Below are positions 1,766 to 62,706 of a DNA stretch of 64,000 bases, one piece after another. Source of the stretch: an uncultured bacterium (GTDB lineage: Bacteria > Patescibacteriota > Doudnabacteria > UBA920); the NCBI GenBank assembly GCA_963749445.1, contig CAVVMJ010000005.1:34915-98914 (forward strand). Reading direction: 5' to 3'. A model generated the notes under the pieces. The model was given only the letters and a program-made list of their open reading frames with translations. It did not search any database and was not told the DNA's origin. Positions within the stretch are counted from its first letter, which is position 1. Each line of letters opens with the position of its first letter. The translations under genes and the position numbers were made by a program.

Positions 1766-4161
<2,396 letters not shown>

Positions 4162-4170
4162 ATGTTGTCA

Positions 4171-4255
4171 TTGTAAGAAGTCAGGGCTTTATCTGGCGAC
4201 GAAGCAATCTTATCCAGAAATAGATTGCCTCGCCCGTCGCCCGTTCGGCTTAGCT
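4171..4255. repeat. Palindromic repeat family 3 (core GGGCTTTATCTGGCGACGAAGCAATC with an inverted partner)
   Basis: Related copies lie at 24225..24300 (intergenic) and, in reverse complement, at 14360..14445 inside the tdh reading frame. Confidence 0.45.
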
Positions 4256-4407
4256 CAGGGCGCCTTGAGGCCATCTAAAGGCGGATGCTACTTTGGGTTC
4301 GCAATGACGAATATCTGAATTGTGGCTAAGCTGGGGATTAGTGTTTATCAAAAATAAAAACTCTCATATATAAGACATAAAAAATGCCTCTTTTTATTGG
4401 GCGATTG

Positions 4408-4437
4408 GCTTGACAATTATAGGGCAATCATTTAAAA
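4408..4437 (+). promoter_or_regulatory. Candidate sigma70-type promoter of the 23S-5S rRNA transcript
   Basis: TTGACA, a 17-nt spacer, then TAAAAT, about 600 nt upstream of the 23S 5' end. No 16S or tRNA lies between it and the 23S. Confidence 0.4.
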
Positions 4438-5659
4438 TATATAAACAATAAGTCATTCACACAGGCGATATGAGAAAAGCCCTATTAGCATTAAGCAATA
4501 AGCGGTTTATGTAAACGGCCCAATTTAAATTGTGCCTTCATAGCCGCGAAAGCGGTTTTTTTGTCGCTCATTATCAATAATCAAATCAAATATAGTGCGA
4601 CAATCCGTCGAAGCTTTAGCGAAGGCGGATTCACCCAAAAATTGTCACCAGATAAATACTGCTCTGCGGGTCTCAGCGTTCCGTAAAACCTAGGGAACAC
4701 AGGCTTGTAGAACCGTTTTCTAGAGCAGTAGTTATGTGGTGGTAATACATCAGCTGATAAGCCAGTAAGCTAGTAAGCAAATCAGGCTATTACAGACCAA
4801 GCACTTTAACAACAGAATAAAGATTATCGTTCTTACCAAGTAACGATAATCTTGGGTAGAAAACATTGTAAGTAAAACATTGTATCCAAGTAATTTGTTG
4901 ATGATCCGCTTTGCCGCGGATCGTCGTCACAAATTGCTAGTCAAATATTAAACACAGACTTTTCGGACAATAAACGGACTTTGGCGGACTCGTTCCGCTT
5001 TAGTCTGTTCCCAGTCCGCAACAGTCAGTGTACATAGATTAAAACAGACAAGGGTATACGGTGGATGCCTAGGTAATATGAGCCGATGAAGGACGCGACA
5101 GCCTGCGATAAGCCTCGGGGAGCTGGCAAATAAGCTTTGATCCGTGGATGTCCGAATGGGGAAACCCACGTACTGGAAGAGTACGTGCTGCTATGCCGTG
5201 GGGTATAGTATGCGGGAACCATGCGAAGTGAAACATCTCAGTAGCATGTGGAAAATAAATCAATTGCGTAGCAATACGCAAAGAGATTCCGTCAGTAGTG
5301 GCGAGCGAAAGCGGAAAGATATAGAAATTTATTCGTTGGGTGGGCTATAGTAGCGCCCGGCGAATAAATATCTATTAGCCCAAACCTAATTAGTGTTTTC
5401 AAAGTCGCAAGACAGAGAATTAAAGATTACAGTCGTTGCTAGTTAGGCGTTATAAGTGGAAGTCATTGCCCCTCTGTAAAGGGGCAGGGAATTATGTTTG
5501 TTGTTTAGCAGAACACGCCTGGAACGGCGGACCAAAGAGGGTGATAGTCCCGTATCGCGAAAAACCATGCAATTTCCTGACTTTTTCTTGAGTACGACCA
5601 GACACGAGAAATCTGGTCGGAAATCAGGTCGACTAAGATCTAAGGCTAAATACTCATAT

Positions 5660-5700
<41 letters not shown>

Positions 5701-6492
5701 CACCCCGGAAGGGGAATGAAATAGTTTCTGAAACCGTATACTTACAAGGAGTGGAAGGGCTTACAGTGCGAAGCACTGTAAACTGTTAACAATTAACAAT
5801 TAACGATTGACCGACTGCAAACTGCAGTTGTACCAGCGTTAATTGTTAATCGTAAATCGTTAATTGTTTGCAGCGCTTCGCGCTGTGCCTAACCGCGTGC
5901 CTATTGAAGAATGATCCAACGAGTTAATCTTTAGCAGCTTGATTAAGTTCTATCAAGAGACGAAATCGTAGTGAAAGCGAGGATGAATAGTCCGTAAAAA
6001 GAATAGTAGTTAGTAGTAGGTAGTTAGTAGCCAGTACAACTTGCGCATTCAAAATGCCGGTTGGTTTGCTACTATCTACTTACTACTTACTACTTACTCT
6101 TTTATGTTGCTAGAGTTAGACCCGAAACCCGGTGAGCTACGCATGGCCAGGATGAACGTGGTGTAACAACCACGGGAGGTCCGAACCCACTATTGCTGCA
6201 AAAATAGGGGATGAGCTGTGCGTAGGGGAGAAATTCCAATCGAACCGGGTGATAGCTGGTTCTCCTCGAAATAGCTTTAGGGCTAGCGTCAAGTGTTCCC
6301 AATAGAGGTAGAGCACTGAATAGAAACCTGCTGCGCAAGCGGTAGGCTCTAACCAAACTCCGAATTCTATTGGCCAAGAACTTGGCAGTCAGTCCGTGAG
6401 GTCTAAGCTTCACGCGACAAATGGAGAAGAATCCACACCACCGTCTAAGGCCCCCAAATCCGAGCTATAGTGCAAAGGATGTGGGGTTGCTC

Positions 6493-6529
<37 letters not shown>

Positions 6530-7730: not shown

Positions 7731-7884
7731 CCCGACTGTTTACCAAAAACTTAGGTCCGTGCTAAAGCGCAAGCTGATGTATACGGGCTGATGCCTGGCC
7801 AGTGTCAGAAGGTTAAACCGGTTGGCGCAAGCCGATCGGCCAAGCCCTGATGAACGCCGGCAGTAACTATAACTGTCCTATGGT

Positions 7885-9182: not shown

Positions 9183-9225
<43 letters not shown>

Positions 9226-9226
9226 T

Positions 9227-9270
<44 letters not shown>

Positions 9271-9300
9271 CGAGCTGGGTTCAAAACGTCGTGAGACAGT

Positions 9301-38276: not shown

Positions 38277-38400
38277 TAATCGCAAATGTACAAATCAACA
38301 CAAATATACAAATTGCCGCACAGTAGGTTGAAGTTTTGTTTAGGCGTCTACGTTTGATTTGTATATTTGTTAATATTTGTATATTTGCGAACACTACAAT

Positions 38401-45020: not shown

Positions 45021-45172
45021 AAAAAAAGCGCACCAACCTGATGCGCTTTTTTTGGCTCGGCCTGCTGAACGACGTTCGTACCTGTCTACAAATTGCTACA
45101 GTGTACCCCGATGCTTCTCGCGGTATTCCCGGAGAGATTCACGGGGTTCACTAATTCATTACTCATCCAAAC
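45021..45172 (-). ncRNA. Candidate small-RNA / 3'-UTR module, copy 1. It has the core ATGAATTAGTGAACCCCGTGAATCTC ... GGCCGAGCC followed by a rho-independent terminator
   Basis: The minus-strand sequence ends in AAAAAAAGCGCATCAGGTTGGTGCGCTTTTTTT. A homologous module lies at 46297..46445 and a partial core at 59126..59165. Confidence 0.35.
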
Positions 45173-46296: not shown

Positions 46297-46445
46297 CCTG
46301 TAACAAAAACACCCCAGATTATGGGGTGGAATTTGTGGCTCGGCCTCCTGAACAACGTTCGTACCTGTTTAGAAGTTGCTCTTGTTTAACCCCCACCCCG
46401 ACTCACGGTACCTCCGGGGAGGTTCACGGGGTTCACTGATTCATC
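46297..46445 (-). ncRNA. Candidate small-RNA / 3'-UTR module, copy 2 (TAG ATGAATCAGTGAACCCCGTGAACCTCC ... GGCCGAGCC plus terminator)
   Basis: It begins exactly at the stop codon of ORF 46445..46657 and ends in CCACCCCATAATCTGGGGTGTTTTTGTT. Confidence 0.35.
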
Positions 46446-46657
46446 TATGGCTTTCTCCATTTGTCCCGGCCACCGACTTTCGTATCCCGCACTCGTTCAA
46501 TATGCGGACCAACACCTGGAAATAATTTTTGTGCTTTCTTAATTGCTTTCCCTTGGGTTGGGGCTATTGCGGAAGCCCTTTTAGCGCCTGCCTCTCGCAC
46601 AGCGTAATCTTTTTGTGGTCGCTGTTCCACATACACTTTCTTGTTTGGTTTATTCAT
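46445..46657 (-). CDS. Small basic hypothetical protein (70 aa)
   Basis: Lys/Arg-rich ORF immediately downstream of the 368-aa unknown gene. Confidence 0.4.
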   Translation of the reverse strand: MNKPNKKVYVEQRPQKDYAVREAGAKRASAIAPTQGKAIKKAQKLFPGVGPHIERVRDTKVGGRDKWRKP

Positions 46658-46667
46658 GTGTTTAATG

Positions 46668-47774
46668 TTAATGATTAAAAAATTTATGGTGAAAATAGTT
46701 TCCGTAAGCCTTTACATTTTCATTTAGCAGTCCATCCATGCTATGGGTTGTGCGGATCACCTTAAGCCCATCTCCGGTAAATCTGTCTTTTTTATGAAAT
46801 ACGGCGTCAAGCGCCGGGGCTTTCATAGCTATGCGAATCTGTGAGTTATAATCTACTAAATCAGGCAAAAAATCCCGCGGTGGCCCCTCCAGTAATAAAT
46901 TGAGTTTGCTCCCTACAGAATTTAGCATGTATTTAATGCCGGCCTGGATTATGCGATAGTCTGCCCGGCCATACCGCTGGCAATTTATGGATGCCATTTG
47001 TACGAGTGGGTTGTCCTGTAGCCATTTGACCCACCTGTGAAGTTGCGGCGTGTTTGACCAGTAAACGTGAGGAACAATCGGCAGACCGGCCGCCTCAAAC
47101 AACTCAAAGGATTTTAGGCTCTTTTTTAGGTTGAGTTGTTGCCCGACTACGCATTCGTAGAAGAACACGGAAAAATTTATGGCCGTTACCAAAGCAAAAC
47201 CCATTTTTACCAATCGCTCCGCCAGGCTTAGGCCTTCCTTTTCTTCCCAGGCTTTTTCGATTAGCGTGTCCGCACCCGTCATAAACAGTAGAACTTTTTT
47301 GCCTTCAAAGAACGGTTGTTTTAGTATGTCTTCCCGAAGTTTAATTTTGGGGAGGTGCATCCCTCCAGCGTATACGGACGGCGGCGAAGTGATAATGTCC
47401 TTAAGGGAAACCCCGACGAACTCCGTGTCAACAAGGTCAGAGTTAAACTTAAAGAAATCGCGAGAGACTATTGGAATGTAATTAGGGATATCAATTTCGA
47501 TCTTGTTTTTTGCAATCACGGAATTAAAGCCTAAACCATCAATTTTGTCTATTGTCGACTGAAGGCCAGGGTTTTGGCAGGTTATGATGTTCGTGGCGAT
47601 TGAGCCGCACGAGCCGCTAACCTGTTCCGCTTCACGGGCAAGTACATAGGGCTCAAATTCCCCTTTGGAAGCACGACAGTTTTTTGGGTACAGCGGTAAC
47701 TCAGATTGTGCGGCGGAAGTCACCATAGGCATCCTTTCCTTTCCTACGGACAGCACCCTGATAGCGTACCCCAC
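46668..47774 (-). CDS. Hypothetical protein (368 aa) with no recognisable family, divergent from the XRE/ImmA pair
   Basis: Protein-like ORF. The 460-bp upstream region is shared with the divergently transcribed XRE gene. Confidence 0.45.
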   Translation of the reverse strand: MGYAIRVLSVGKERMPMVTSAAQSELPLYPKNCRASKGEFEPYVLAREAEQVSGSCGSIATNIITCQNPGLQSTIDKIDGLGFNSVIAKNKIEIDIPNYIPIVSRDFFKFNSDLVDTEFVGVSLKDIITSPPSVYAGGMHLPKIKLREDILKQPFFEGKKVLLFMTGADTLIEKAWEEKEGLSLAERLVKMGFALVTAINFSVFFYECVVGQQLNLKKSLKSFELFEAAGLPIVPHVYWSNTPQLHRWVKWLQDNPLVQMASINCQRYGRADYRIIQAGIKYMLNSVGSKLNLLLEGPPRDFLPDLVDYNSQIRIAMKAPALDAVFHKKDRFTGDGLKVIRTTHSMDGLLNENVKAYGNYFHHKFFNH

Positions 47775-48242
47775 CTTTTATACAGAGTAAAATCAGGGGA
47801 GCTTGGCGAGACGTCAGGATTGCGATCTTGGCGACGCCAGCGTATATTTCAATTTTGTCTTTTACGATTACGAGTGTCAATTTTGTCCCCGCCGGTAACG
47901 CCGGGCGTTCCGGAAGCTTTGCGACAAATGATACTGGGCAGACACTCGGATTAAAGTTTTGTTTTTGTGAAGACACGCTTCCTGCCACCCCTTGACTCTT
48001 CGTTGGGGTTGTAGCCGCATGGACGCTCGGTGCGCCCACATCCGACGGCTTCCTTTTCCCTGAACCTGAACCCATAAATTTCCTTTCGACGGATTGGCTT
48101 GACCATCCGCGTAAATAATGTTAATTTGTATACAGGAGGTAAACCAAATATACAATCTTAATCTGTATGATAACATATCCTTTTGTATAGTCAAGGGCTT
48201 TTCCAAGACAAATACTAAGGATTTTATAATTCAACCTTAAAT

Positions 48243-48563
48243 ATGCAGGAAATTAGCAAATATATTGGCAAGAAAATACGCGATATAAGGGAAGAAAAAG
48301 GTGTTACTCAAAAAGAACTAGGGGAATTATTAAGCTATTCCCCCATGGGAATATCCCATTTTGAAAATGGCATACGCGATCTTAGACTTTCGGACATAAA
48401 GAAACTGGCCGAATATTTTAAGGTCGATTTGTCTTACTTTTTACCTGAGGGGAGCAACCCAGTACCAGAACCCACTTTTTTTAGGGCAGACGCGTCTAAC
48501 GATCCCCATGTAGAAAAATCGCTTGATGATTTTGATGCTTACTTGAATAAACTACAAAAATAA
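48243..48563 (+). CDS. XRE-family helix-turn-helix transcriptional regulator
   Basis: IRDIREEKGVTQKELGELLSYSPMGISHFENG Cro/C1-type HTH. Confidence 0.75.
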   Translation: MQEISKYIGKKIRDIREEKGVTQKELGELLSYSPMGISHFENGIRDLRLSDIKKLAEYFKVDLSYFLPEGSNPVPEPTFFRADASNDPHVEKSLDDFDAYLNKLQK

Positions 48564-49040
48564 ATGAACAATCACAGGTCATACATAGAAGAATTGGCAA
48601 ATAAAGCTTTGGAGAGTGGCGGCTGCACAAAGCCGCCCGTACCAGTAGAGGACATCGCCAAAAAAATTGGTTTGACGGTGGTTATGTTTGATTTCCCCCA
48701 GACAATTTCTGGCGTGTTAAAAAAAGAAAAAAAAGCTATTGGAGTAAATCAAAACCACCACCCGTTGAGAAGAAGGTTCACAGTTTCTCATGAGTTGGGC
48801 CACTTCCTTCTTGGTCATGAAGGATACAAGGACGAAGAATTTATTGATGACAGGTTTGATCGGCCCATCCCTCTGGAGAGGGAGGCTAACCTTTTTGCTT
48901 CTTTTTTGTTAATGCCTAAAAAGTGGGTCGAGGAGAGTATTAAAAAAAATGGTATGGAAATTCCAAGGCTGGCCAAGGAATTCCAGGTTAGTGAGCAGGC
49001 CATGACTATAAGATTATTAGAACTAAACTTGATAAAATAA
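48564..49040 (+). CDS. ImmA/IrrE-family metallopeptidase (DUF955)
   Basis: HELGHFLLGH HEXXH motif. It is adjacent to and co-oriented with the XRE gene, the classic XRE-ImmA module. Confidence 0.75.
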   Translation: MNNHRSYIEELANKALESGGCTKPPVPVEDIAKKIGLTVVMFDFPQTISGVLKKEKKAIGVNQNHHPLRRRFTVSHELGHFLLGHEGYKDEEFIDDRFDRPIPLEREANLFASFLLMPKKWVEESIKKNGMEIPRLAKEFQVSEQAMTIRLLELNLIK

Positions 49041-49087
49041 AACAGCCGCCCTGTAGGGGCGGTTGTTTATAAACCTTTAAAATTAAT

Positions 49088-51505
49088 TTACTTTGGTATA
49101 GGCGTGGCATTTATCTCAAGCACCTTCATCACTTCATCTCCATAATGGTTAATTACCTTTACAGCTATCTTGCCAGTTTTAGGTTTTGGGAATGGACGGG
49201 ATACTGTGGAATATAACTCGTCCCAGGATTCTTCGCTAATATCAGCCTTTAGGGCTTTCTTAAGTTTTTCGTAAGGCTTGTCTGCACCAAGAAAGTAAGC
49301 GTGAGTAATAAAAAACGCTTCGCTGTTATAGTTGGTATCTATGAACCATGCCGCTATTTCGTGTTCTGTATCCCCAGAGCCACTGGAACGAATTTCGCTT
49401 TTGACTGGATCGTAAATATCTACGCCCATTACCTCCACCACCACACCGTCTTTGGTCTCTTTGACTTTTACGTCCGGTTCACCGAAGGCGAGGAATAAGT
49501 TACCTGAACCGGTCTTCTTGAGCAAATCACCCATGGACAAATCCGGATTGATTTTCACTTTCATTATTTGTAATCCATTTGATTGTGTACCTTCTGAAAA
49601 CGCAGAAGCTTCAAATGACGTGGCGGCAACAACTAAAAGATCGGCAAATTTTTTGGCAACTGTAGCGGCGTCACGGATGAAATCGTCATCTACACTACCG
49701 AATTCAGGGCCGATAGAAACCGCCACTTTTTTGAGTCCGTTATTCGTTTTATATTCTCCAACAGCTTGCACTTCTGGACCGCTTGGTAAAATATCCAAAT
49801 TTACAAACTCTACTCGCGCGCCTTTTTCACCAGTTTGTACGCCGGATTTTAAAAGATTACTGACAACAGTTTCCGCAAATCTTTCGGAAGACAACATCTC
49901 CTGTGCGTCAGAAACGCGATGCGGAGAAAGTGATTCAACGGTAAAAGGTCCAGTTACACGAACAACATTTTTATTTTCAGTAGGTTGATCATATAGAATC
50001 TCCTGCTCCGCCGCTTCATCATTGGCAAGCGATTTTAAGGTTATATGAGGCACATTTTTATATTCAAACCCAGCCGAAACAATGTGTTCGTCTATGAGTT
50101 TGTAATATGGAAATTTGGCAGTCATTAAACGAGTCCTTGCGAGGGCCAATGAAACACGCGAAGTATCAATTGTAATCCAGCGTCTGCCCCACTGCTCGGC
50201 TACAAAAGCAGTTGTGCCGGAACCGCAAGTTGGGTCGAGTACAATATCTCCCGGGTCTGTGGTCATTAATAAACATCTTTCCACTACAAAATTTGAGGTT
50301 TCAACAATGTAACTCCTTTGACTTGGTCCATTTGTGTCATACCAAAAATTAGTAATTTTTTGATAAGGAAAATCGGAACTAAACATTGCATAAGAGAGGC
50401 TTTGACCCTCTGACTTTATACGGTCCAATTTTATTAATTTCTCTAATTTATCTTTTTCAACAATCCAACTAAACCCGCGTGGAAAAGAGTACTCCTTACC
50501 TTTAAAACTAATGGAATAATCATTCCCAGAAGAATATCCTGGAGCTCTTAATGAAACTAATCTGTACCAATCACCGCGCTCATCTTTGTTCCACCTTGAT
50601 TTATTATCCGGGATATACTCTTGATAAAGTTGTCTATATTTTAACCTTTCTTTATCTTTTCCATACCAAATGATAAAATCATTCATTGTATCTAAATATT
50701 TAGCACCTAATGGCATTGTTTTTTTTCTAAATGGAATTAGCGAGACAAAATTATCTGGACCAAAAACTTCATCTATTACATTTCTAACAAGATGAACATT
50801 TTCCTCGTTGATTTGAACAAAACAACTTCCGCTCTCAGTTAACAGCTCGCGCACCACTAATAGACGATCTCGTAAATAAGAAAGGTAGGAATGGATTCCA
50901 AGTTCCCATGTATCACGAAAAGCCTTAACCTGCTCGGGTTGACGGATAAAATCCTCCAATTTATTGTCTTTCACATCTCGGTTACGTGTGGATACCTGCC
51001 AATTGGAACCAAACTTAATACCATACGGTGGATCAATATAAATTGTTTGCACCCTACCGCGCATTCCCTCTTTTTCCAACAAACTATTCATCACAAGTAG
51101 TGAATCACCCAGAACCATCCGATTCTGCCAATTGTCCTCGTGCTTGTAAAAATCTACGGCTTTGCTAAATTGCGCTTCGGCCGTTTCACCAAAAAGCATC
51201 TGCTGTGAATTATCACTGGTACCTGCTTTGAGACGAGCAATAATTGCCTCGGGTGCTATTTTTTCCTGTACATAAATAGGTACCGTTGGCACGGCAAACT
51301 CGGTTCCTTGTTCTTGTTTTCCAGCCCAAACAAGCTGGGGGTCAAGCGACGGATCGTAAGCATAATGCGTTTTTACTGGCTGTTTATCACGGGCAGAAAG
51401 TTTAACGGATTCTTCTTGCGTAGGAATACGTACGCGTTTGGCGTCATGCGTGTATGATTTTACGGGTGCGGCGGTAGTTGGTTGTGATATTTTTTTCTTT
51501 GGCAT
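49088..51505 (-). CDS. mod: Type III restriction-modification N6-adenine DNA methyltransferase (Mod-like, beta class) with an extended C-terminal region
   Basis: YIDPPYGIKF (motif IV) precedes DPTCGSGTT (motif I), the permuted beta arrangement. There are about 370 aa after motif I. Confidence 0.8.
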   Translation of the reverse strand: MPKKKISQPTTAAPVKSYTHDAKRVRIPTQEESVKLSARDKQPVKTHYAYDPSLDPQLVWAGKQEQGTEFAVPTVPIYVQEKIAPEAIIARLKAGTSDNSQQMLFGETAEAQFSKAVDFYKHEDNWQNRMVLGDSLLVMNSLLEKEGMRGRVQTIYIDPPYGIKFGSNWQVSTRNRDVKDNKLEDFIRQPEQVKAFRDTWELGIHSYLSYLRDRLLVVRELLTESGSCFVQINEENVHLVRNVIDEVFGPDNFVSLIPFRKKTMPLGAKYLDTMNDFIIWYGKDKERLKYRQLYQEYIPDNKSRWNKDERGDWYRLVSLRAPGYSSGNDYSISFKGKEYSFPRGFSWIVEKDKLEKLIKLDRIKSEGQSLSYAMFSSDFPYQKITNFWYDTNGPSQRSYIVETSNFVVERCLLMTTDPGDIVLDPTCGSGTTAFVAEQWGRRWITIDTSRVSLALARTRLMTAKFPYYKLIDEHIVSAGFEYKNVPHITLKSLANDEAAEQEILYDQPTENKNVVRVTGPFTVESLSPHRVSDAQEMLSSERFAETVVSNLLKSGVQTGEKGARVEFVNLDILPSGPEVQAVGEYKTNNGLKKVAVSIGPEFGSVDDDFIRDAATVAKKFADLLVVAATSFEASAFSEGTQSNGLQIMKVKINPDLSMGDLLKKTGSGNLFLAFGEPDVKVKETKDGVVVEVMGVDIYDPVKSEIRSSGSGDTEHEIAAWFIDTNYNSEAFFITHAYFLGADKPYEKLKKALKADISEESWDELYSTVSRPFPKPKTGKIAVKVINHYGDEVMKVLEINATPIPK

Positions 51506-51507
51506 AA

Positions 51508-54500
51508 TTATTCCTTAGTAAATAAATTATCCGGTATGAGGTTATCAAAACCTCTTGCCATACCGGCGCGAATAATATTTTGCGTCTCGTGTATATCCTG
51601 CACTTCAAGGATCGCCCACTTGCCGTATTTACCGATATTATTAATTGCTGGCACCCAAAGATCTTGCGTGGTTTTTATTTTCATCTTTTTTTTATCATCT
51701 TTCTTGCCAGTTACTTCTATAAGCAAATTTAATTTTGATTTATCTGGCATTTCCAGAACAGCTATAAAATCGGGCACATAATGATGAGATATGCCTTGAT
51801 GTTCGTAGGGAATAGTAAAGCCAAGACTTTGATTTTTAACATAAGCAAGAATCTCTGGCATTTGTTCCAATTTTTTAGCAACTCCTTGTTCCCATTCTTC
51901 AGTATCGGCCACCACGTAATTTATGTGGCTCTTAACTGTTTCGCGGACTGGTTTGGTTGTCAAAAAATCTACATATTGAGTGGAGCCCAGAGTATCGTAT
52001 GGTGCGAGAATTGGTAACAGCCTTTTGTCTTTTTGGTCTTCTAGATTTTCAGCAATAATGGCTTGTTGGATTTTAGTTAGAGCACCAGAGAAATATTCGC
52101 CAATGGAGAGGTAGCCTATGACCATTCGATCCTTTAAAACTACATACTTTTTGACATATTCCTCGGCAATTTTGCGCAATTGCGGGGTGAGCCAATATTT
52201 TTCGTTGCCTTCGGCATCGGTATAGTATCGTTTAAGAAGCGCCTGCGTGAGGCGGATGATTACTTCACCATCGCGACGTTCTCTAATCTTTTCTAAATTT
52301 TCTTTGACTTCCTCGCCGATTACGCCGCTACTTGTAACCTCAGTCGGTTCATTTTCAATAATAGTTTTTGATTCTTCAGAAAAACGGGCGATAAGTTTGG
52401 TCTCGTTGAGTTCGTAACGATAACCGTCGACACGCGGGTAGGTAATTTCGTATTGTTCACGGTCAGGGAGCGCATGGACACGATGAATGACTTTAGGCGG
52501 TTGTGGTGGCGTATTACCCTCGGCTTTTAGGAAGCTAAACGGTACGCCATAGACTTCGGCATATTCCGGCGTAAATTTTTCTATACCGTCTTCGGGATCA
52601 ATGGTAGTTGAATAATCTACCCGGCGCAGAGCGCGACCGACGACTTGCTCGCAAAGAAGTTGAGTAGAAAATGCGCGTACACCAAGAACATGAGTCACTG
52701 TGTTCACGTCCCAACCTTCCGTAAGCATAGAAACGGAAACAACGCATTTGATATCTTCTCCAAGCTTTCCAGGTTTGCCCACTGTGTTCATTATCTCACG
52801 TAGAAGCTCCTCGTCTGTCGGTTCGTCCCGCCCAGGGAAACGCTTGCGGTAATCTTTATGAAAGTCCTCAATTTCTTTAGTAAAAATTTGTTTAAAATCA
52901 TCGTTAACTTTTTCTCCACTTTCAATCTGAGCACTGTCAATAATGAGGGTGTTTGGACGATCGTAAAACCGCACACCATCTTCATTGCGAAATATATCCA
53001 AATTTCCCTTTTCAATCTTAAATTGACCACTGGCAGTTTCCCGTTCATAGCCAGCAATCCAACGATAAACCAATTCCGATACAGCGGTGTTGTTGCATAC
53101 GACTATCATAACCGGAGGCATGACATTTCGATCGTCTTTTTTATGTTTTAGGTACGGTTGATAGTATTTCTTATCGTAATTTCCGTATAGAGATTCCAAG
53201 GCCTCTTGCAATTTAGTTGGCAAAGTATTTGACGATAAATAATCCTTCCCGCCAGTCTTTAGTCCCTTTTTGGGCAAATCATCCCGGACATGAAGCCACA
53301 AATTTCTGAATTCCGGTTCATCATCTTTTGAGACGGTATCTGATTCAATCGGAAGTCGAGGAATTTTTACAATACCGCATTCTAAAGCGTCCAAAAGTGA
53401 AAAATCATAAATTGCCCACGGGAACATAGTGCCTTCCTGATAGCCGGAACCACGCAAAAAATAAGGCGTCGCCGAAAGATCAATTACCGCATTAACATTA
53501 ATTTTCTTTGCCAATGCTTCAATACCACTAATCCATACGCGGGCCGCTTTATTGTTTTCGTCTGCTTCTTTCCTCTCTTCTCCGGACAATTTTTCCTCGC
53601 TTGGCTTTTCGCGATAACAGTGATGAGCTTCATCATTGATTACCAAAACTCGTGGTTTACCTAAAACACTTTTGAATGCACGATTAACCATCGCGTTTGG
53701 AGTTTCTTTGATAGCTTCTTCTTTTAATAATCCTGTCGCTTTCATAACCGCGCCGACTTGGAATCGTGGGTTTTGTCTTAGTTCAAGCTGATGAAAGTTT
53801 GTAATAAAAACAGTGGCTTGTTGCAGCAAATCAAAATCTTGATATGAAACTATATCGCGTTCACGATAATAATTTTTTGGGTCGTTTGGCAAAAGAACAT
53901 TTAAGCGGTCGCGAATAGTAATGCCCGGTGTGATTATCACAAATGCGTCAGTAAATCGAGTATCTTGAGGATAACGAATTTTGTTAAGTGTATGATAGGC
54001 AATAATCATTGCCATGACGACCGTCTTCCCGGAGCCAGTTGCCATTTTAAAAGCCAAACGGTACAGACCGGGATTTGCATCTGTGTTGGCTTTTTTTAAT
54101 TCATTGATAATCCAATTTTCACCAGATTTTTCTGCCACCTCATTAATGTATATCAAAGTCTCCAGCGCTTCTATTTGGCAGAAAAAAAGTTTGTTTTCCC
54201 TAGTTTCATCACGCCAATAAGAAAGTAGATCGCGGGATGTTTTAGTAATACCTGAATATTCCGACCCTCGCCATTCTTTTATTTTTGCTCTGACTTTATT
54301 TATAAACTCGTTTTCTTTTTGAAGTTCAGTACCGAAAGCGCCGTCGGCAATATTTAAGTCGAGCTGTTTTTGTTTGGTTTTAGCCCTGGGAACGGGAATA
54401 TAAAAGCTGCTCGGGCGACGAGTATCTAATATTTCATCAGTGATCCCGCGGTCATCTGCCTTGAAATGGCGACTGGGTTCAATATATGGCGAGTTTAAAA

Positions 54501-54552
54501 TTGGATTTTTCATGAGGGGTGTGACAATGTAAAACTGACTTAATTTTAGCAC
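51508..54552 (-). CDS. res: Type III restriction enzyme Res subunit (SF2 DEAH helicase plus C-terminal PD-(D/E)XK nuclease)
   Basis: ATGSGKT Walker A, VINDEAHH DEAH box, MLTEGWDVNTVTHVLG motif VI, and C-terminal YVPDFIAV...EVTGKK nuclease motif. It lies upstream of mod, which is an unusual order. Confidence 0.8.
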   Translation of the reverse strand: MLKLSQFYIVTPLMKNPILNSPYIEPSRHFKADDRGITDEILDTRRPSSFYIPVPRAKTKQKQLDLNIADGAFGTELQKENEFINKVRAKIKEWRGSEYSGITKTSRDLLSYWRDETRENKLFFCQIEALETLIYINEVAEKSGENWIINELKKANTDANPGLYRLAFKMATGSGKTVVMAMIIAYHTLNKIRYPQDTRFTDAFVIITPGITIRDRLNVLLPNDPKNYYRERDIVSYQDFDLLQQATVFITNFHQLELRQNPRFQVGAVMKATGLLKEEAIKETPNAMVNRAFKSVLGKPRVLVINDEAHHCYREKPSEEKLSGEERKEADENNKAARVWISGIEALAKKINVNAVIDLSATPYFLRGSGYQEGTMFPWAIYDFSLLDALECGIVKIPRLPIESDTVSKDDEPEFRNLWLHVRDDLPKKGLKTGGKDYLSSNTLPTKLQEALESLYGNYDKKYYQPYLKHKKDDRNVMPPVMIVVCNNTAVSELVYRWIAGYERETASGQFKIEKGNLDIFRNEDGVRFYDRPNTLIIDSAQIESGEKVNDDFKQIFTKEIEDFHKDYRKRFPGRDEPTDEELLREIMNTVGKPGKLGEDIKCVVSVSMLTEGWDVNTVTHVLGVRAFSTQLLCEQVVGRALRRVDYSTTIDPEDGIEKFTPEYAEVYGVPFSFLKAEGNTPPQPPKVIHRVHALPDREQYEITYPRVDGYRYELNETKLIARFSEESKTIIENEPTEVTSSGVIGEEVKENLEKIRERRDGEVIIRLTQALLKRYYTDAEGNEKYWLTPQLRKIAEEYVKKYVVLKDRMVIGYLSIGEYFSGALTKIQQAIIAENLEDQKDKRLLPILAPYDTLGSTQYVDFLTTKPVRETVKSHINYVVADTEEWEQGVAKKLEQMPEILAYVKNQSLGFTIPYEHQGISHHYVPDFIAVLEMPDKSKLNLLIEVTGKKDDKKKMKIKTTQDLWVPAINNIGKYGKWAILEVQDIHETQNIIRAGMARGFDNLIPDNLFTKE

Positions 54553-54559
54553 TTTTTGA

Positions 54560-54648
54560 GAAAATAATCACTTCACAGAGATGGCCTTTGAATGTTATAC
54601 TTTAGGTACAATTTATGCCTAAACTTTGGGGAAACCCGGGGCATGGCG
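54560..54648. repeat. 89-bp inverted repeat, left copy (IR-L). Its partner lies at 61893..61981
   Basis: GAAAATAATCACTTCACAGAGATGGCCTTTGAATGTTATACTTTAGGTACAATTTATGCCTAAACTTTGGGGAAACCCGGGGCATGGCG versus the reverse complement of 61893..61981. There are a handful of mismatches. Confidence 0.6.
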
Positions 54649-54788
54649 CAGAAAAACGAGAAAAACATAAAGACGGTCATCTGTCTTGCTTTACGTTTTT
54701 CTCGTTACCAGCCGAAAGGTTGGTAGACCCGCAAGGGTCGGGCAAGCGGGTGGCCCTTTTTGTTTGCCCGCGGAAAGACCAATCAGCC

Positions 54789-55817
54789 ATGAAAAAAATA
54801 ATTGTGTTAAGTTTTCTTGTTACGTTACTGGCTGCGGCTTGCAACAAGGCTGTCACTAAAAATGGCGAGGCGTCTCAGCCCCAAAAGCCAACGCAAACTC
54901 AAGCGGCAACTTCCACAACCCAAACCGCGACGACCACTTCAGGTTCTGACAACTTTGCCCCCGAGCCTTACACAATAGACTCAGTCAACAAATTGGCTGC
55001 CAAATTGGCTGCCAAGAACGGAGGCAACGCCGCAACCCCAACTAAAGCAACGCCTGCTCCAGTAACCGAACAAGACTTTCGTAGTCAACTTACAGCCTTG
55101 TATCAAGAAAAGATAGGCTTTTTGGATGATAAAATAAAAACTTGGAAACTTACAAAATTTGCGATCGGCTTAGGCATCGACCAAAGCAATAAAGATATTT
55201 CTTTCTACAATCAAAATTGTACTGATACGGGCTATTGCGACCCATATGCCGTTAAAATGTCCCAGTTAGAGCTTGACGAGGATACAAAGTTTTCTGGAAT
55301 TTGGCAAAGCCGCATTGACCAAGGGAGTCAAATTGAACAAAAGTTGAATGACGAATTGACTGCGCTAAACGCAGACAACTCCACGGTACCGCAAGCCGAG
55401 TACGCTCTCCGGCAGAACGAGCTAAACACTCTAGTTAATGAATCCGACATTGAGCAGGCCGACGCTTCCATTAACCAAGCAACTTACTTCACAGCAGACA
55501 AAAAGGCTGAAATTGATAATACAATTTTGTCTCATGCACAAACCGCCAAGGCATGGGCAGACCAACAGCTTGCGACAATCAACGCCGAAGCTCAAACGGC
55601 CGCGCAAAACATTCCGCCAATAGTTACGGCGCCAATAACCACGGTCCCGATTCAGCCGACATCAATCCATTGCAACACCACTGCGGACACACAGATGGGG
55701 TTCCCTAAGAGTGAGACGGAGTGCACGGAGTTTCCGACAATGAAGACGATGGTCTGTAACACTTCCACTTCTGGGTACGGGAGCCTGCAAAAGGATTGTT
55801 ACTTTATAAATCAGTAA
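54789..55817 (+). CDS. Lipoprotein (signal peptide plus LAAAC lipobox), low-complexity Thr/Gln/Ala-rich
   Basis: MKKIIVLSFLVTLLAAAC. The start is chosen at the internal Met. The ORF-track start 54615 lies inside IR-L. Confidence 0.45.
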   Translation: MKKIIVLSFLVTLLAAACNKAVTKNGEASQPQKPTQTQAATSTTQTATTTSGSDNFAPEPYTIDSVNKLAAKLAAKNGGNAATPTKATPAPVTEQDFRSQLTALYQEKIGFLDDKIKTWKLTKFAIGLGIDQSNKDISFYNQNCTDTGYCDPYAVKMSQLELDEDTKFSGIWQSRIDQGSQIEQKLNDELTALNADNSTVPQAEYALRQNELNTLVNESDIEQADASINQATYFTADKKAEIDNTILSHAQTAKAWADQQLATINAEAQTAAQNIPPIVTAPITTVPIQPTSIHCNTTADTQMGFPKSETECTEFPTMKTMVCNTSTSGYGSLQKDCYFINQ

Positions 55818-57796: not shown

Positions 57797-59125
57797 ATGC
57801 CAGACTCTCAACCAGCAAAACGACAATACACCAAACGCAAAACGGAGGAAAAGGACAAATCTGTAATGGCGGTATCACTTGTAACGCCGGATCATCTTAT
57901 TGAAACCATTTATGACCCCCAGCTCGATATGACTAGCTATGCGGTTTTTGTCCGTCAAACCGGCAAGTGCGAACGCCACGATCAGTTCATTTATAAATCC
58001 ACGACCTACGTTCCACCCGACCGAAACAACCCTCTGGTTAAAAAAGGCTTCGTCCTTCTGGCGTCCCGGCCCAGGCCTTTAATGGAAACGGCTACGCTCT
58101 TAGAGGAAATACGCAAGTTCGTTTCTGATTACCTGACTGTCAGCCCGGAGTTTGAGGAAATCATTCCGTACTTCGTCCTGCTGACCTGGATTTACGACCG
58201 CTTTGACACCGTGCCGTACCTTAGGGCTTTGGGCGACATGGGCAGAGGCAAATCCCGCCTCCTGTTCGTCATGACCGCCTTAAGTTACAAAGCGTTTTTG
58301 GCCAATGGTGCCGCAACAGTCTCCCCGATATTTCGCATACTGGACTCCTGGCACCCGACCTTGATTTTGGACGAAGCCGACTTTAACCGAGCAGATGAGA
58401 AGAGCGAAATTATGAAGATATTCAACAGCGGCTTCGCAAAAAACACCCCGGTCTTACGGAGTGAAGATGACGGCAAGGGCGGATTTACTGTGCGGGCATT
58501 TGACGTCTACGGCCCCAAGATATTCGCTTCCCGCCATCAGTTTGGCGACGACGCTTTGGAAAGCCGTTGCTTTACCCACGACATGGACATGATTGAAAGA
58601 ACATCAAACGTACCGATAAACCTCGACGACAATTTCCGCCAGCGTGGCCTAGAGCTACGCAATAAACTGCTGACTTGGCGATTCCACAACTTTGGCAAAA
58701 TAGAGATCAATCCAAAGCTGACCGACCCGCGCGTAACTGACCGGCTCAACCAAATTTCTTTACCCCTAAAAAGCATCGCTCTGGCAGAGGAAGCCCGCAA
58801 AAAGATTGAAGGTGTAATTTACAGCCTGCACTTGGACATGATTGATTCCCGTGGACTCTCGTGGGACGCAGGGGTATTGCACGCAATTATTACACAAATT
58901 ACCGGCTTAATTGACCCCGAGGAAATAACCGTCAAGATGATTGCCGAGGAATATAACAAAGAGGCGGATGACAAAGACAAACTAACCAACAATAAAGTTG
59001 GCTGGATTTTACGGAAGAAGCTCAAAATAAAAACCGTCCGCCGGGGAGCGGGTTTTACATTGGTTTATGACGACGCTACAAAGCAACGTCTTGAACAACT
59101 AAAGCTAAAATACGGACTGACATAA
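57797..59125 (+). CDS. P-loop NTPase resembling phage/plasmid primase-helicase C-terminal (P4/D5-like) replication proteins
   Basis: Walker A-like GDMGRGKS and Walker B-like LILDEADF. Confidence 0.45.
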   Translation: MPDSQPAKRQYTKRKTEEKDKSVMAVSLVTPDHLIETIYDPQLDMTSYAVFVRQTGKCERHDQFIYKSTTYVPPDRNNPLVKKGFVLLASRPRPLMETATLLEEIRKFVSDYLTVSPEFEEIIPYFVLLTWIYDRFDTVPYLRALGDMGRGKSRLLFVMTALSYKAFLANGAATVSPIFRILDSWHPTLILDEADFNRADEKSEIMKIFNSGFAKNTPVLRSEDDGKGGFTVRAFDVYGPKIFASRHQFGDDALESRCFTHDMDMIERTSNVPINLDDNFRQRGLELRNKLLTWRFHNFGKIEINPKLTDPRVTDRLNQISLPLKSIALAEEARKKIEGVIYSLHLDMIDSRGLSWDAGVLHAIITQITGLIDPEEITVKMIAEEYNKEADDKDKLTNNKVGWILRKKLKIKTVRRGAGFTLVYDDATKQRLEQLKLKYGLT

Positions 59126-59907: not shown

Positions 59908-61545
59908 ATGTTAAATCAAACTAAAAAATATTTCATCTATTCCCGAAAGTCTACGGAATCGGAAGAACGTCAAATCCTTTCGATTGATTCCCAAATTAAG
60001 GAGTTGCAGGAGTTGGCCGTCCGGCGTGGCTTTCGGATTGTTAAAATATTCCGGGAGTCTCAATCCGCGAAAGAGCCTGGCCGTCCCGTGTTTGCAAAGA
60101 TGATGGAGGGCATTGCTAACGGCGACGCCAGCGGCATTCTTTGTTGGAAGCTTGACCGCTTGGCTCGTAATTCTGTGGACGCTGGCGCCATAATTTGGGC
60201 GCTCAAAGATAAAGGCATTGAAATAAACACGCCTACACAGAGTTACAGCCATGCCGATGAGAATAGCATTTTGATGTATTTGGAATTTGGGATGAGCCAG
60301 AAGTACATCGACGACTTGTCTAAAAACGTAAAGCGCGGTTTAAAGACAAAAGTCGGGCAGGGTTGGATGCCCGCTTTTGCCCCGATTGGCTACATAAACA
60401 CTCGGCTGGCTGACAGAGGGGTCAACACTATCGTTCCCGACCCCGAACGTTTTCCTTTGGTGCGGCAGGCTTGGGATTTTATGCTTACGGGGCTTTACAC
60501 ACCCCAACAAATTGTTGACAAATTAAACAAGGAGCTTGGTTACCGATCAAGACCGACAAAGAATTGCCCAAGCAGGCCGCTCGGCGACACCACGATTTAT
60601 AGAACTTTCAACAATCCGTTTTATTTTGGAATGTTCCGTTATAATGACCAGCTCTGCGAAGGGCATCACGAACCAATGGTTTCCAAAGCGGAATTTGATC
60701 GCGTCCAAGTGCTTTTGCACAAACGCGAGAACCCTCGCCCCATAAAGTACAGTTTCACCTATGGCGGGTTAATTCGGTGCGCCTGTGGCTTAAGTATAAC
60801 CGCGGAGAAGCGCGTTAAGCACCAGCAAAACGGGAACACGCACGAATACACTTATTACCACTGCACAAAGTCAAAAGTGCCACGCTGTGCCGAGCAATCC
60901 ATTTCAGAGGAGGAGTTGGAGGCCGAAATCGACAGGGTAGTGTCGGAGTTGGAAATCTCGCCGAAATTTCGGGACTGGGCTTTTTCCAAACTTCAAAAAA
61001 TGAATGAGCAAGAATCGGCCGGGCGGCGGGAGTTGTTAGCCCGTCAACGCAAGGCTTACGATGAATGTTTAAAAAAGATTGACGGGCTGATAGAAATGCG
61101 CGCGGCTAAGGAGATTGGCGCGGAGCAATTTAAAAGCAGGAATGACGCCTTACTTGCTGAAAAGGGGCGGCTGAACGAGGCATTAAACGGCACGGACGAG
61201 TTGGTTTCCGACTGGGTAAAAAAAGCCGAAGCCGCTTTTGATTTTGCTACTCTGGCTAGGAAACGTTTTGTTAAGGCAAGTCCGGAAAAGCGTCGTGAGT
61301 TTGTTGCGGCTATGTCCGAACCTTCGAACCTCATTTTAAATAACAAAACACTCGATTTTATAAAGAGTAGTCCGCTGTTTGTGATTAAAAAAGCCGTAAA
61401 GGGCCACAAGGAAGTTAAGCCAACCTTCGAACCTCTTTTTAATACGGCGGACAAACGTAAAGGCCACCCTTTAGGGGTGGCCAATTCACGATGGCTCGGG
61501 AGGTGGGATTCGAACCCACGACCCATCGGTTACACCTACCCTTAA
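59908..61545 (+). CDS. Large serine recombinase (resolvase catalytic domain, recombinase domain, zinc ribbon)
   Basis: YSRKSTESEERQILSIDSQ catalytic serine region, DRLARN, and a C-terminal Cys cluster CACG...HC...C. Its 3' end runs into the tRNA 3' exon. Confidence 0.8.
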   Translation: MLNQTKKYFIYSRKSTESEERQILSIDSQIKELQELAVRRGFRIVKIFRESQSAKEPGRPVFAKMMEGIANGDASGILCWKLDRLARNSVDAGAIIWALKDKGIEINTPTQSYSHADENSILMYLEFGMSQKYIDDLSKNVKRGLKTKVGQGWMPAFAPIGYINTRLADRGVNTIVPDPERFPLVRQAWDFMLTGLYTPQQIVDKLNKELGYRSRPTKNCPSRPLGDTTIYRTFNNPFYFGMFRYNDQLCEGHHEPMVSKAEFDRVQVLLHKRENPRPIKYSFTYGGLIRCACGLSITAEKRVKHQQNGNTHEYTYYHCTKSKVPRCAEQSISEEELEAEIDRVVSELEISPKFRDWAFSKLQKMNEQESAGRRELLARQRKAYDECLKKIDGLIEMRAAKEIGAEQFKSRNDALLAEKGRLNEALNGTDELVSDWVKKAEAAFDFATLARKRFVKASPEKRREFVAAMSEPSNLILNNKTLDFIKSSPLFVIKKAVKGHKEVKPTFEPLFNTADKRKGHPLGVANSRWLGRWDSNPRPIGYTYP

Positions 61546-61821
61546 ATTTCTTTAAGGAGTGGACTATATCATCATCCTGTCTGGCTCGTCATGTGGGATT
61601 CGAACCTAAAGGATGCGAGGCGCTTCCCATCCGCCTATGGCGGAAAGTACTCCCGTAAAGGGATAGTCTCTGAACCTTCCCCAAAAGTTGGGGCTTGGCT
61701 GCTGATTGCCATTTTAAAGGCTTCCAGCAATTCACCTCGTGTTTCCATTCTCAATTACTTGAGAAGGCTGCAACTTATGTATTACAGCCGATTGCTCTAC
61801 CGCTGAGCTACTCCCGAACGA
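61497..61821 (-). tRNA. tRNA-Asn (anticodon GUU) interrupted by an approximately 250-nt group I intron in the anticodon loop
   Basis: 5' exon TCGGGAGTAGCTCAGCGGTAGAGCAATCGGCTGT (61821..61788). 3' exon TAACCGATGGGTCGTGGGTTCGAATCCCACCTCCCGAGCCA (61537..61497). The acceptor strands TCGGGAG/CTCCCGA pair. The intron guide GCAGCC pairs with exon GGCTGT with a terminal U:G. The intron ends in G and has P7-like AGACTA / ATAGTCC. Confidence 0.6.
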
Positions 61822-62037: not shown

Positions 62038-62706
62038 ATGGATTCATTCAAGGAAATTGCTTATAAAGTTTTAAAAAGGGCGCACAGACCGCTTCACAGT
62101 AATAAGATAACCGAAATCGCTTTAGATCGTGGCTGGCTGAAAACTGCCGGTAAAACACCAGCGGCAACCATGAACGCGCAGCTTGTTACGGACATCGGGG
62201 ATAATGGTAATAAGTCAAAATTTATTCAAACGGGAAAATCAACTTTTTATTTACGCAAATATATGAAAAAGCACAAGCATAAGCACCCAAACGGCAACCG
62301 TGGCGTATTGATTAAGGGAATGTCTAAACTTTTGCCTAGCGATATATTAACCGATCCGGTGTTTAAGGAAAGTCTGGAAAAGCTGATGCGGGGCTATGGC
62401 GGCATCTATGCCTTGTATAAAGGTGAAAAACTTTTTTATGTGGGGTTAGCCACAAGTTTGCATGGCAGAGTTAAATGGCACCTTAGAGACAGATTAAAAG
62501 GCAAATGGAATAATTTTAGAATTTTCAGAATTCGCAGAGTAAGATTCCTTAAAGACCTTGAAACTTTAATTTTGAATATCATTATGCCTAAAGGCAATCG
62601 TGCAAAAGGCCATTTAGCCAAGGATGGCGATTTAAATCTTATCTTACGGAAAGTTTTAAGGGAATATGAAACAAGAATAAAACCCATAAGAAAGGCTTTG
62701 AGATAG
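62038..62706 (+). CDS. HARE-HTH (Mrr_N-like winged helix) fused to a GIY-YIG nuclease domain
   Basis: The N-terminus EIAYKVLKRAHRPLHSNKITEIAL is HARE-HTH-like. GIYALYKGEKLFYVGLATSLHGRVKWH is GIY-YIG. The gene is AT-rich. Confidence 0.55.
   Translation: MDSFKEIAYKVLKRAHRPLHSNKITEIALDRGWLKTAGKTPAATMNAQLVTDIGDNGNKSKFIQTGKSTFYLRKYMKKHKHKHPNGNRGVLIKGMSKLLPSDILTDPVFKESLEKLMRGYGGIYALYKGEKLFYVGLATSLHGRVKWHLRDRLKGKWNNFRIFRIRRVRFLKDLETLILNIIMPKGNRAKGHLAKDGDLNLILRKVLREYETRIKPIRKALR

Follow-up and report, generated by a model that had tools for sequence, protein, structure and literature searches.

A 64,000-nucleotide (nt) stretch of DNA from an uncultured bacterium (GTDB lineage Patescibacteriota; Doudnabacteria; UBA920; contig CAVVMJ010000005.1 of assembly GCA_963749445.1), referred to here as the window, harbours between positions 46445 and 54552 a group of genes that an original prediction, made from the letters alone, had described as a defence island. 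This description holds, and all six of the open reading frames (ORFs) on which it rested are present at the coordinates collected in Table 1. The families proposed for the restriction subunit (Res), the methyltransferase (Mod), the XRE-type helix-turn-helix (HTH) repressor and the ImmA-type metalloprotease are likewise upheld by searches against Pfam, PADLOC and NCBIfam. A further gene of 124 amino acids (aa) had been overlooked, and its recognition changes how much of the interval is understood. On balance, and with a slight preference overall, the interval is read as two independent modules of a chromosomal defence island, a restriction-modification (RM) cassette (module A) and an inducible operon with its XRE/ImmA switch (module B). 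The latter comprises three genes, encoding the 124-aa partner, a 352-aa enzyme and a DUF2188 protein, that are divergent from the XRE repressor and a short ImmA-type protease. Module B, and the partner-enzyme pair at its core, is the main subject of what follows.

Table 1. Features of the interval in window coordinates; the last two rows use the coordinates of their own loci.
Feature	Position	Strand	Basis or remark
Res, 1014-aa maximal ORF from GTG	51508..54552	-	NCBIfam NF046055, Pfam ResIII
Mod, 805 aa	49088..51505	-	Pfam N6_N4_Mtase, PADLOC MTase_III
Terminator-like GC hairpin and T-run between convergent Mod and ImmA (47-bp gap)	49046..49062	-	
ImmA/CapP-like Zn-metallopeptidase, 158 aa	48564..49040	+	Pfam Peptidase_M78
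XRE/CapH-like HTH repressor, 106 aa	48243..48563	+	Pfam HTH_3
Divergent control region, 167 bp	48076..48242	.	Promoter and operator-like repeats
124-aa partner gene, absent from the list of the original prediction	47701..48075	-	Conserved in related loci; called gene in source record (P0161)
352-aa TIM-barrel enzyme (predicted)	46668..47726	-	Maximal ORF (368 aa) extends to GTG at 47774
DUF2188 protein, 70 aa	46445..46657	-	Pfam DUF2188 (PF09954)
Terminator-like hairpin and U-run closing the three-gene operon	46310..46328	-	Closes the ~110-nt repeat at 46332-46444
Proteobacterial core pair, L040 (Rhizobium etli pRetIE4803d)	2917..6016		
Proteobacterial core pair, L042 (Sinorhizobium alkalisoli plasmid)	2905..6016		

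The genes of module B are tightly packed. Those of the partner and the enzyme overlap by 26 nt and, since the DUF2188 gene begins 10 nt past the enzyme gene, it is taken to be co-transcribed with the enzyme at this locus. The original prediction had placed a shared divergent promoter region of 460 bp between the XRE gene and a 368-aa protein of no recognisable family; most of that region is the 124-aa gene, and the real gap is the 167-bp control region. The 368-aa frame itself exists as a maximal ORF, but the most likely start of the protein, judged from its homologues, is Met17 of that frame, giving 352 aa: the form of the enzyme held in the databases (P0001) begins there, and so do the alignments with its homologues.

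A word-index search with the large protein returned a single homologue beyond the query (P0002, 37% identity). On the contig that encodes it (L001), a 117-aa ORF lies in the same place as the 124-aa gene and runs into the beginning of the large gene. Its product begins MGSGSKRK where the present one begins MGSGSGKRK (BLASTP E 1e-6), and an HTH gene and a truncated ImmA gene occupy the divergent position. An exhaustive HMMER search with the enzyme reached 559 cluster representatives at E<=1e-3 and 76 at E<=1e-30, and 36 related loci were collected and analysed with local hidden Markov models (HMMs). The genome-derived loci among them come from metagenome-assembled genomes (MAGs) of Saccharibacteria and other members of the candidate phyla radiation (four such MAG loci), which makes a host of that kind probable here. 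The partner gene lies directly upstream of the enzyme gene in all 33 related loci with upstream DNA, usually overlapping it, and complete copies encode 112-133 aa. In two independent contigs, partner and enzyme are fused into a single protein of 488 aa (L012, 2104-3570; L013, 2185-3651) and, because the partner forms the N-terminal portion, these fusions keep a free Met-Gly (MG) terminus. A truncated fusion of 238 aa (L039, 4893-5609) and a split copy that has probably decayed (L016, 3068-4116) were also encountered. It is thus very probable that the 124-aa gene is real and that it encodes an obligate partner of the enzyme.

The original prediction had instead joined the 368-aa protein to the 70-aa protein as a candidate novel effector pair that XRE/ImmA might control, beside a type III RM system of anomalous, inverted order. 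The 10-nt spacing and the co-transcription of the two genes at this locus are in keeping with such a pair. So are the match of the 70-aa protein to the PADLOC candidate PDC-S16 (5.1e-7, over profile positions 1-42 of 75 only) and the occurrence of DUF2188 in CapH/CapP-associated operons. The 70-aa protein, for which no family had been recognised, belongs to DUF2188 (Pfam 3.6e-6, 27.5 bits against a cut-off of 22). However, L010 is the only other locus in which a DUF2188 gene comes after the enzyme (E 2.9e-8). A match in L014 is sub-threshold, so that 2-3 of ~30 loci share this arrangement, whereas the 124-aa gene is always there; moreover, the supposedly anomalous gene order of the RM cassette is the norm of its family (see below). 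Elsewhere, the gene next to the enzyme encodes a DUF1508 protein, a large serine recombinase, an IS256-type transposase, an AAA_21 ATPase, a methyltransferase or, convergently, a reverse transcriptase. The neighbourhood survey therefore defines the partner and the enzyme as the conserved core, around which regulators and tail genes vary. It rules out DUF2188 as an obligate partner of the enzyme: the protein is an optional accessory, variable across the family. As an account of the locus, the effector pair of the original prediction is very improbable.

The conserved pair falls into more than one subfamily. In the second, the partners start MGVDWIRR or MGLDYIRR and the enzymes are larger, with Cys-rich N-termini; the type of partner N-terminus (MGSG.KRK or MG[VL]D[WY]IR) changes together with the subfamily of the enzyme. 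In metagenome loci of this second subfamily (L008, L009) a HATPase-like gene lies upstream. On plasmids of Rhizobium etli and Sinorhizobium (Table 1), the 116-aa partner beginning 'MGLDYIR..' and its DUF4417-like enzyme are preceded by a gene for a STAS-like DUF4325 protein and followed by one for a 299-aa protein of unknown family, the rhizobial plasmid pair being flanked by AbiE, OLD/UvrD, KwaB-like, DprA-PRTase and type II RM genes. The distribution of the pair is patchy and extends across phyla, and all five proteins of module B are singletons at 90% identity.

The partner opens with a peptide of the form MG[SD]GxKRKxxD..I..P, represented here by MGSGSGKRK..D, in which M1, G2 and R8 are invariant across the partner alignments. 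This is followed by a Gly/Ser-rich linker of variable length and then by a domain of ~80 residues with conserved C46, C98 and Y105. The AlphaFold2 model of the partner agrees with this division, with residues 1-40 disordered (predicted local distance difference test, pLDDT, <50) and residues 41-124 forming a beta-rich unit at pLDDT 86-94. Foldseek matched this unit to Lactobacillus plantarum lp_0118 (3k2y) at E 5e-3 and to HIRAN-DNA complexes of HLTF at E ~0.1, with probabilities of 0.99-1.0. On the strength of the model, residues ~41-124 are assigned with moderate confidence to a HIRAN-like domain. Set against this assignment is its marginal character, as Pfam HIRAN is the top profile match yet a weak one, found for 1 of 21 members at E 0.035. 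HIRAN domains bind 3' DNA ends.

The view of the original prediction that the large protein has no recognisable family is only partly true. The enzyme alone scores 14.3 bits (E 0.028) against Pfam DUF4417 (PF14386), for which the gathering threshold is 28.9. Nevertheless, 48 of 115 aligned family members match DUF4417 (best 7e-11), and the enzyme is consequently regarded as a divergent relative of DUF4417 that lies below the curated cut-off itself; tblastn ties it to annotated DUF4417 proteins at 5e-12. A weak match of the enzyme to AcrIC9 (E 0.35) was judged to be due to chance. The family-invariant residues are D153, E157, W160, S186, N199, P219, H220, Y222, N248, Q250 and G281. In addition, C17 and C40 are conserved, and C50 mostly so, in an ordered, loop-rich N-terminal segment, a pattern that suggests a metal site.

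The AlphaFold2 model of the enzyme, built from the 115-sequence alignment, is a confident one (mean pLDDT 94.5; predicted template modelling score, pTM, 0.92) and takes the form of a triosephosphate isomerase (TIM) barrel, in which the conserved residues are placed where the active centres of TIM barrels usually lie, at the C-terminal ends of the predicted strands. When this model was compared with the PDB by Foldseek, 45 of the top 50 matches were tRNA-guanine transglycosylases (TGTs), including bacterial TGT, QTRT1 and archaeosine TGT. These matches reached E ~4e-5 and a template modelling (TM) score of ~0.5 over ~340 aligned columns, and other TIM barrels scored lower, with shorter coverage. 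Among viral models (BFVD), the named top matches are phage 'queuine tRNA-ribosyltransferases', which are read here as being of DpdA type. It is therefore likely, on structural prediction, that the enzyme has a TGT/DpdA-like fold.

Several observations weigh against taking this resemblance further. Sequence similarity to TGT is absent, both in an hhalign comparison with Escherichia coli Tgt (probability 0.2%) and in a profile search of the PDB, which returned no TGT at E<=10. Nor does the triple-aspartate signature of DpdA and TGT appear to be kept, as only D153, together with E157, is invariant among the 115 members. By spacing, D110, D153 and E280 (43 and 127 residues apart) mimic D95, D130 and D256 of DpdA; however, D110 is found in only 72 of 115 members, and the residue at 280, the position with the spacing of the nucleophile, may be E, Q, T, H, S or V. 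The zinc site of TGTs is a C-terminal CxCxxC...H motif. This motif is absent from the enzyme, whose conserved cysteines are N-terminal instead. Because sequence similarity to TGT is lacking and the aspartate rule seems not to hold, what is claimed is a TGT-like fold and pocket rather than membership of the TGT family. Whether such a pocket acts on nucleic-acid bases is, in our assessment, evenly balanced.

Both the barrel and its structural neighbours might be taken to speak for a housekeeping or salvage role, in which the 352-aa protein would be a tRNA-modifying or nucleoside-processing enzyme that lies beside regulators by chance: TIM barrels are mostly metabolic, and TGTs are tRNA enzymes. 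The patchy, cross-phylum distribution, the singleton status of all five module proteins at 90% identity and the constant location of the gene in mobile or defence surroundings that include repressors of its own make this explanation scarcely credible.

Elsewhere in the DUF4417 family, in Streptococcus phage Javan394 (L044, 1916-3016), a ParB_N domain is fused to DUF4417 (E 2e-70) just upstream of the terminase genes; the annotation of this protein as a 'DNA modification methylase' is probably wrong, and Pfam detects no methyltransferase domain in it. In a Streptomyces plasmid, genes for ParB_N and DUF4417 overlap, and a 2025 preprint reports that ParB-DUF4417 fusions are frequent in prophages. 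These ParB_N partners point to a link between the wider family and DNA. The arrangement recalls DpdA, a TGT-like enzyme that replaces guanine in DNA with preQ0 and has three invariant aspartates (D95/D130/D256), and its companion DpdB, a ParB-like ATPase. The present system shares with them the TGT-like barrel and the mobile-element or defence context, and members of the wider DUF4417 family have ParB-like partners just as DpdA has DpdB. In contrast to DpdA/DpdB, the clade described here has the MG-tailed, HIRAN-like protein in place of ParB, lacks preQ0 pathway genes nearby and appears not to conserve the three aspartates.

These parallels raise the prospect that module B serves a mobile element, the switch inducing a DpdA-like base exchanger that protects the DNA of the element from restriction during transfer or replication, as a form of counter-defence. 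Canonical DUF4417 genes do lie by terminase genes in prophages and by replication or relaxase genes on plasmids, with ParB partners, and the structural neighbours named in BFVD are phage proteins of DpdA type. A serine recombinase gene directly follows the pair in L023 and L024, an IS256-type transposase gene does so in L028, and a large serine recombinase is encoded in the window itself (59908-61545). Furthermore, ImmR/ImmA classically controls the induction of prophages and of integrative and conjugative elements (ICEs). However, the clade with small MG partners lacks ParB and is found among defence genes rather than among those for transfer or replication, no genes for the biosynthesis of a base precursor accompany it, and the DpdA catalytic aspartate triad appears not to be conserved. 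A role in counter-defence on behalf of a mobile element is accordingly considered unlikely, a defence or conflict function of the operon being the more probable reading.

The closest parallel to the pair itself is found in type IV CBASS (cyclic-oligonucleotide-based antiphage signalling systems), whose CD-NTases (cGAS/DncV-like nucleotidyltransferases) universally start M(G/S)G(G/S)GG. After removal of the Met, G2 is conjugated by the QueC-like Cap9 to 7-amido-7-deazaguanine, and the modified CD-NTase tail sits in the active site of the TGT-fold Cap10 (Wassarman et al. 2025, bioRxiv 10.1101/2025.04.06.647259). A TGT-fold barrel is likewise combined here with a partner whose Gly-rich N-terminus, MGSG(S)GKRK at this locus, is strictly conserved. 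There are clear differences, in that no QueC-like enzyme, CD-NTase, cyclic-nucleotide effector or OGG-like Cap11 is present, the partner is a small HIRAN-like protein and the pocket residues differ. Docking of the N-terminal peptide of the partner in the enzyme pocket is proposed tentatively, as the simplest reading and by analogy with this system, and falls somewhat short of probable. Less likely by far is a chemical extension of this proposal, in which the invariant Gly would be reactive. Here, the barrel, which would lack a conserved nucleophile of its own, would displace a base from DNA or RNA, of phage or host, and the N-terminus of the partner would be joined to the sugar; alternatively, the barrel would hold a nucleobase-conjugated N-terminus made without a QueC-like enzyme. 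A search of the operon, of the related loci inspected and of the window ORFs scanned turned up neither a QueC-like gene nor one for a CD-NTase, and the lack of the former counts against the main reading of module B. If true, the reactive-Gly reading would describe a conjugate of protein and nucleic acid, directed to its target by the HIRAN-like domain, and thereby a new immune chemistry that takes N-terminal nucleobase conjugation beyond CBASS and Qat.

A tethered peptide that enters a pocket might equally belong to a toxin-antitoxin (TA) or abortive-infection pair, with the barrel as the toxin and the small protein as a tethered pseudosubstrate inhibitor whose N-terminal peptide would occupy the pocket, to be removed by displacement or degradation. 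That the small gene comes first, in tight translational coupling and in the usual antitoxin-toxin order, fits this model, as does an N-terminal peptide that is conserved yet disordered and carried on a flexible tether. AbiE and other TA systems neighbour the relatives, and the extra transcriptional lock provided by XRE would suit a dangerous product. The L012 and L013 fusions are, however, hard to square with an antitoxin, which has to come off its toxin or be degraded, and a folded HIRAN-like domain points to positive targeting. An inhibitor function for the partner is thus rated improbable.

Expression of the operon is likely to be controlled by XRE/ImmA. The best sigma-70-like promoter of the control region precedes the partner gene on the minus strand (48194-48167; TTGACT-16-TATCAT, TG-extended, 10 of 12 matches). 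The sequence TTTGTATA occurs at 48125-48132 and again at 48182-48189, where it is placed between the -35 and -10 elements, and the palindromic TGTATACA occupies 48127-48134. L011 and L037 carry the arrangement CTTGACTATACAAA...TATCAT in their corresponding regions, L005 has it in degenerate form, and ACTATAC is present in 9 of 12 equivalent control regions; another subgroup of control regions has a TAAACAAA/TTTGTTTA inverted repeat instead. Within the window, TTTGTATA is found 10 times against 2.6 expected, two of these copies forming the putative XRE operator. Three further copies stand at 38305-38383, just upstream of an rpoD-like gene. As the original prediction described, the XRE/ImmA genes converge on the RM cassette and diverge from a poorly known operon. 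This divergent layout is a feature of at least 15 related loci, with a weaker pair in three more and a fused XRE-ImmA protein in L031. Operator-like repeats that overlap the promoter, together with the divergent layout, fit repression of the operon by XRE.

The repressor (Pfam HTH_3, 1.5e-14) matches the PADLOC capH profile at 3.5e-9 over positions 4-93 of 103, and the protease (Pfam Peptidase_M78, 7.2e-22, with a HELGH motif) matches capP at 3.1e-29 over positions 5-154 of 242 only. ImmR/ImmA of ICEBs1, CapH/CapP and IrrE/DdrO have the same arrangement, in which the gene for an M78 metalloprotease comes after that for an HTH repressor and both diverge from the operon under control. E. coli CapP consists of a peptidase (1-141), an HTH (142-182) and a GAF domain (182-288), the latter two forming a groove for single-stranded DNA (ssDNA). 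The present protease has 158 aa and corresponds to the peptidase part alone, and is for this reason classed as ImmA-like; like ImmA-type proteins (~160-170 aa), it lies beside an XRE repressor. The absence of HTH and GAF domains, which form the ssDNA-sensing groove in CapP and IrrE, makes the trigger of those proteins hard to carry over: CapP-type ssDNA sensing is not directly transferable to a protease without the GAF domain, nor is a DNA-damage trigger simply transferable from CapP or IrrE.

Operons of this type have been seen before, as an identical architecture, with CapP-like and CapH-like genes divergent from two hypothetical genes followed by DUF2188, was drawn for Extensimonas perlucida HX2-24 (Lau et al. 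2022, bioRxiv 10.1101/2022.04.27.489752, Fig. 6F). The likeness is one of gene layout alone; that operon was drawn only, never analysed, and the protease here differs in having the peptidase domain only.

Past the DUF2188 gene, the operon meets a direct repeat of ~110 nt, one copy of which (46332-46444) starts right past the DUF2188 stop codon, the other lying at 45049-45159, 1283 nt apart (82-84% identity). On the minus strand, each copy opens with ATGAAT(C/T)AGTGAACCCCGTGAA and has an intrinsic terminator after it. When folding was compared with shuffled sequences, the copy at 45 kb folded far better (z -5.1), unlike the other (z -0.3). An attachment (att) site is unsupported; this is a 3' element present in two copies and closed by a terminator.

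Module A is, almost beyond doubt, an ordinary type III-like RM cassette of the BPTD_3080 family. Res matches the NCBIfam model for BPTD_3080 family restriction endonucleases (NF046055) with 1113.8 bits over residues 15-995, against a cut-off of 800, and likely starts at Met14 (54513), the family alignment beginning at residue 15. It also matches Pfam ResIII (3.9e-12) and, weakly, RE_endonuc (2.2e-3), and combines a superfamily 2 (SF2) DEAH helicase ('VINDEAHHCY') with a C-terminal endonuclease. Mod matches Pfam N6_N4_Mtase (3.6e-31) and PADLOC MTase_III (PDLC03632, 1.2e-199), and the order of its motifs, DPPY then DPTCGSGTT, is that of a beta-class N6/N4 DNA methyltransferase. The motifs on which the original prediction relied, DEAH in Res and the two in Mod, are thus in place, and res is indeed transcribed before mod. 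The two are not one fused gene, since a stop codon, a 2-nt gap and a change of frame lie between them.

In sharing an SF2 DEAH helicase-nuclease Res and a beta-class m6A-type Mod in one operon, the cassette resembles EcoP15I-type systems. It is unlike them in that classical type III systems (EcoP1I/EcoP15I) have the order mod then res, which is reversed here, and in the C-terminal extension of Mod, a trait common to all relatives inspected. Both features had been singled out as departures from the canonical type. However, res precedes mod in all three annotated BPTD_3080 relatives, from Picosynechococcus pAQ5, a Methylomagnum plasmid and a Pseudomonas avellanae plasmid, and their Mods comprise 937-986 aa as derived from annotated gene coordinates (959 aa as measured for P. 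avellanae). The 805-aa Mod aligns end to end with the P. avellanae Mod, C-terminal region included, at 43-45% identity. Because the relatives inspected share both, the gene order and the long Mod C-terminus are traits of the subfamily and not anomalies of the locus. A tblastn search of plasmids gave 47 records with relatives of Res at 40-51% identity. In two of the three annotated relatives, one or two small genes sit between res and mod, namely a UPF0175/DUF3368 pair in Picosynechococcus pAQ5 (L002, 9100-9844) and a 173-aa hypothetical gene in L003 (9162-9683), and in P. avellanae a 3'-5' exonuclease gene lies downstream of mod. No link was found at this locus between XRE/ImmA and control of the RM genes, and nothing new is added to the biology of such cassettes.

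Beyond Res, a LOOT RNA (Rfam RF03000; 73.8 bits against a gathering score of 46.4) lies at 54616-54739 (+), in the space that separates the Res gene from a divergent lipoprotein-like gene. A mechanically called 400-aa ORF (54615-55817) overlaps this RNA with its first ~40 codons, and its real start is probably the signal peptide MKKIIVLSF... ~170 nt downstream. The window further encodes a 442-aa protein without a Pfam match (57797-59125, +), the large serine recombinase already mentioned (plus strand) and a protein with HARE-HTH and GIY-YIG domains (62038-62706, +). To judge from the recombinase and its neighbours, the island (~46 to 63 kb) may be an integrated mobile element. A group I intron match of 109 bits (61540-61793, -) starts within the last 6 nt of the recombinase gene and lies outside ribosomal RNA (rRNA); it is stronger than the group I intron of 62 bits that forms one of the insertions in the 23S rRNA (9272-9522, +). 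That rRNA (5037-9996, +) carries large insertions, as it spans 4960 nt against a model of 2925 nt, and ORFs at 7328-7672 and 8023-8550 lie inside them. The region from 2 to 42 kb otherwise holds housekeeping genes, including those for LigA, GlmS, Acs, pyruvate kinase, DnaG and RpoD, along with the 23S and 5S rRNAs. A class I/II aminotransferase is split there between two ORFs (15919-16479 and 16473-17144, +) that cover Pfam profile positions 2-141 and 149-360, which is the result of a frameshift, a pseudogene or an assembly error. At 31783-33242 (+), a 223-aa fragment of PPDK_N (a phosphoenolpyruvate-utilising enzyme) is followed by overlapping ORFs in other frames, and this gene may be fragmented.

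Taken together, these observations allow a working model of module B to be outlined. In the resting state, XRE would bind the TGTATA-type repeats over the promoter, as the layout and the operator-like repeats suggest, and so keep the operon off. By homology to ImmR/ImmA and CapH/CapP, a signal of stress or infection would lead the protease to cleave XRE, and the operon would then be expressed. The partner and the enzyme would form a complex, for which strict co-occurrence, overlapping frames and natural fusions argue strongly. The enzyme, predicted with confidence to be a TIM barrel nearest in structure to the base-exchanging transglycosylases TGT, DpdA and Cap10, may act on the bond between nucleobase and sugar in a nucleic acid, most likely DNA, a step proposed with moderate confidence. 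With low to moderate confidence, the HIRAN-like domain of the partner could bring the enzyme to DNA, and its invariant, tethered N-terminal peptide, in which Gly2 is exposed once Met is removed, could enter the enzyme pocket as that of the CD-NTase does with Cap10. The net effect, to judge from the neighbourhoods, would be that invading or own DNA is damaged or marked during infection, leading to anti-phage defence or abortive infection. The operon is, on this basis, probably an inducible defence module. A caution against this conclusion is that neither core protein has a model in PADLOC (2023 library). The pair also lacks a Pfam family of its own, and the papers searched for DUF4417, DUF2188, DUF4325 and HIRAN with transglycosylase contained no characterisation.

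TGT-fold proteins have recently been shown to be re-purposed in immunity, with DpdA placing deazaguanine in DNA and Cap10 receiving a nucleobase-tagged protein N-terminus. Module B would add to these a compact gene pair, conserved across phyla, that unites a predicted TGT-fold barrel with a small protein whose invariant Gly N-terminus is carried on a flexible tether. The operon would also provide a case in which a peptidase-only ImmA switch gates an immune operon. The pair may also serve as a minimal, QueC-free system in which to ask what such barrels do with a protein N-terminus.

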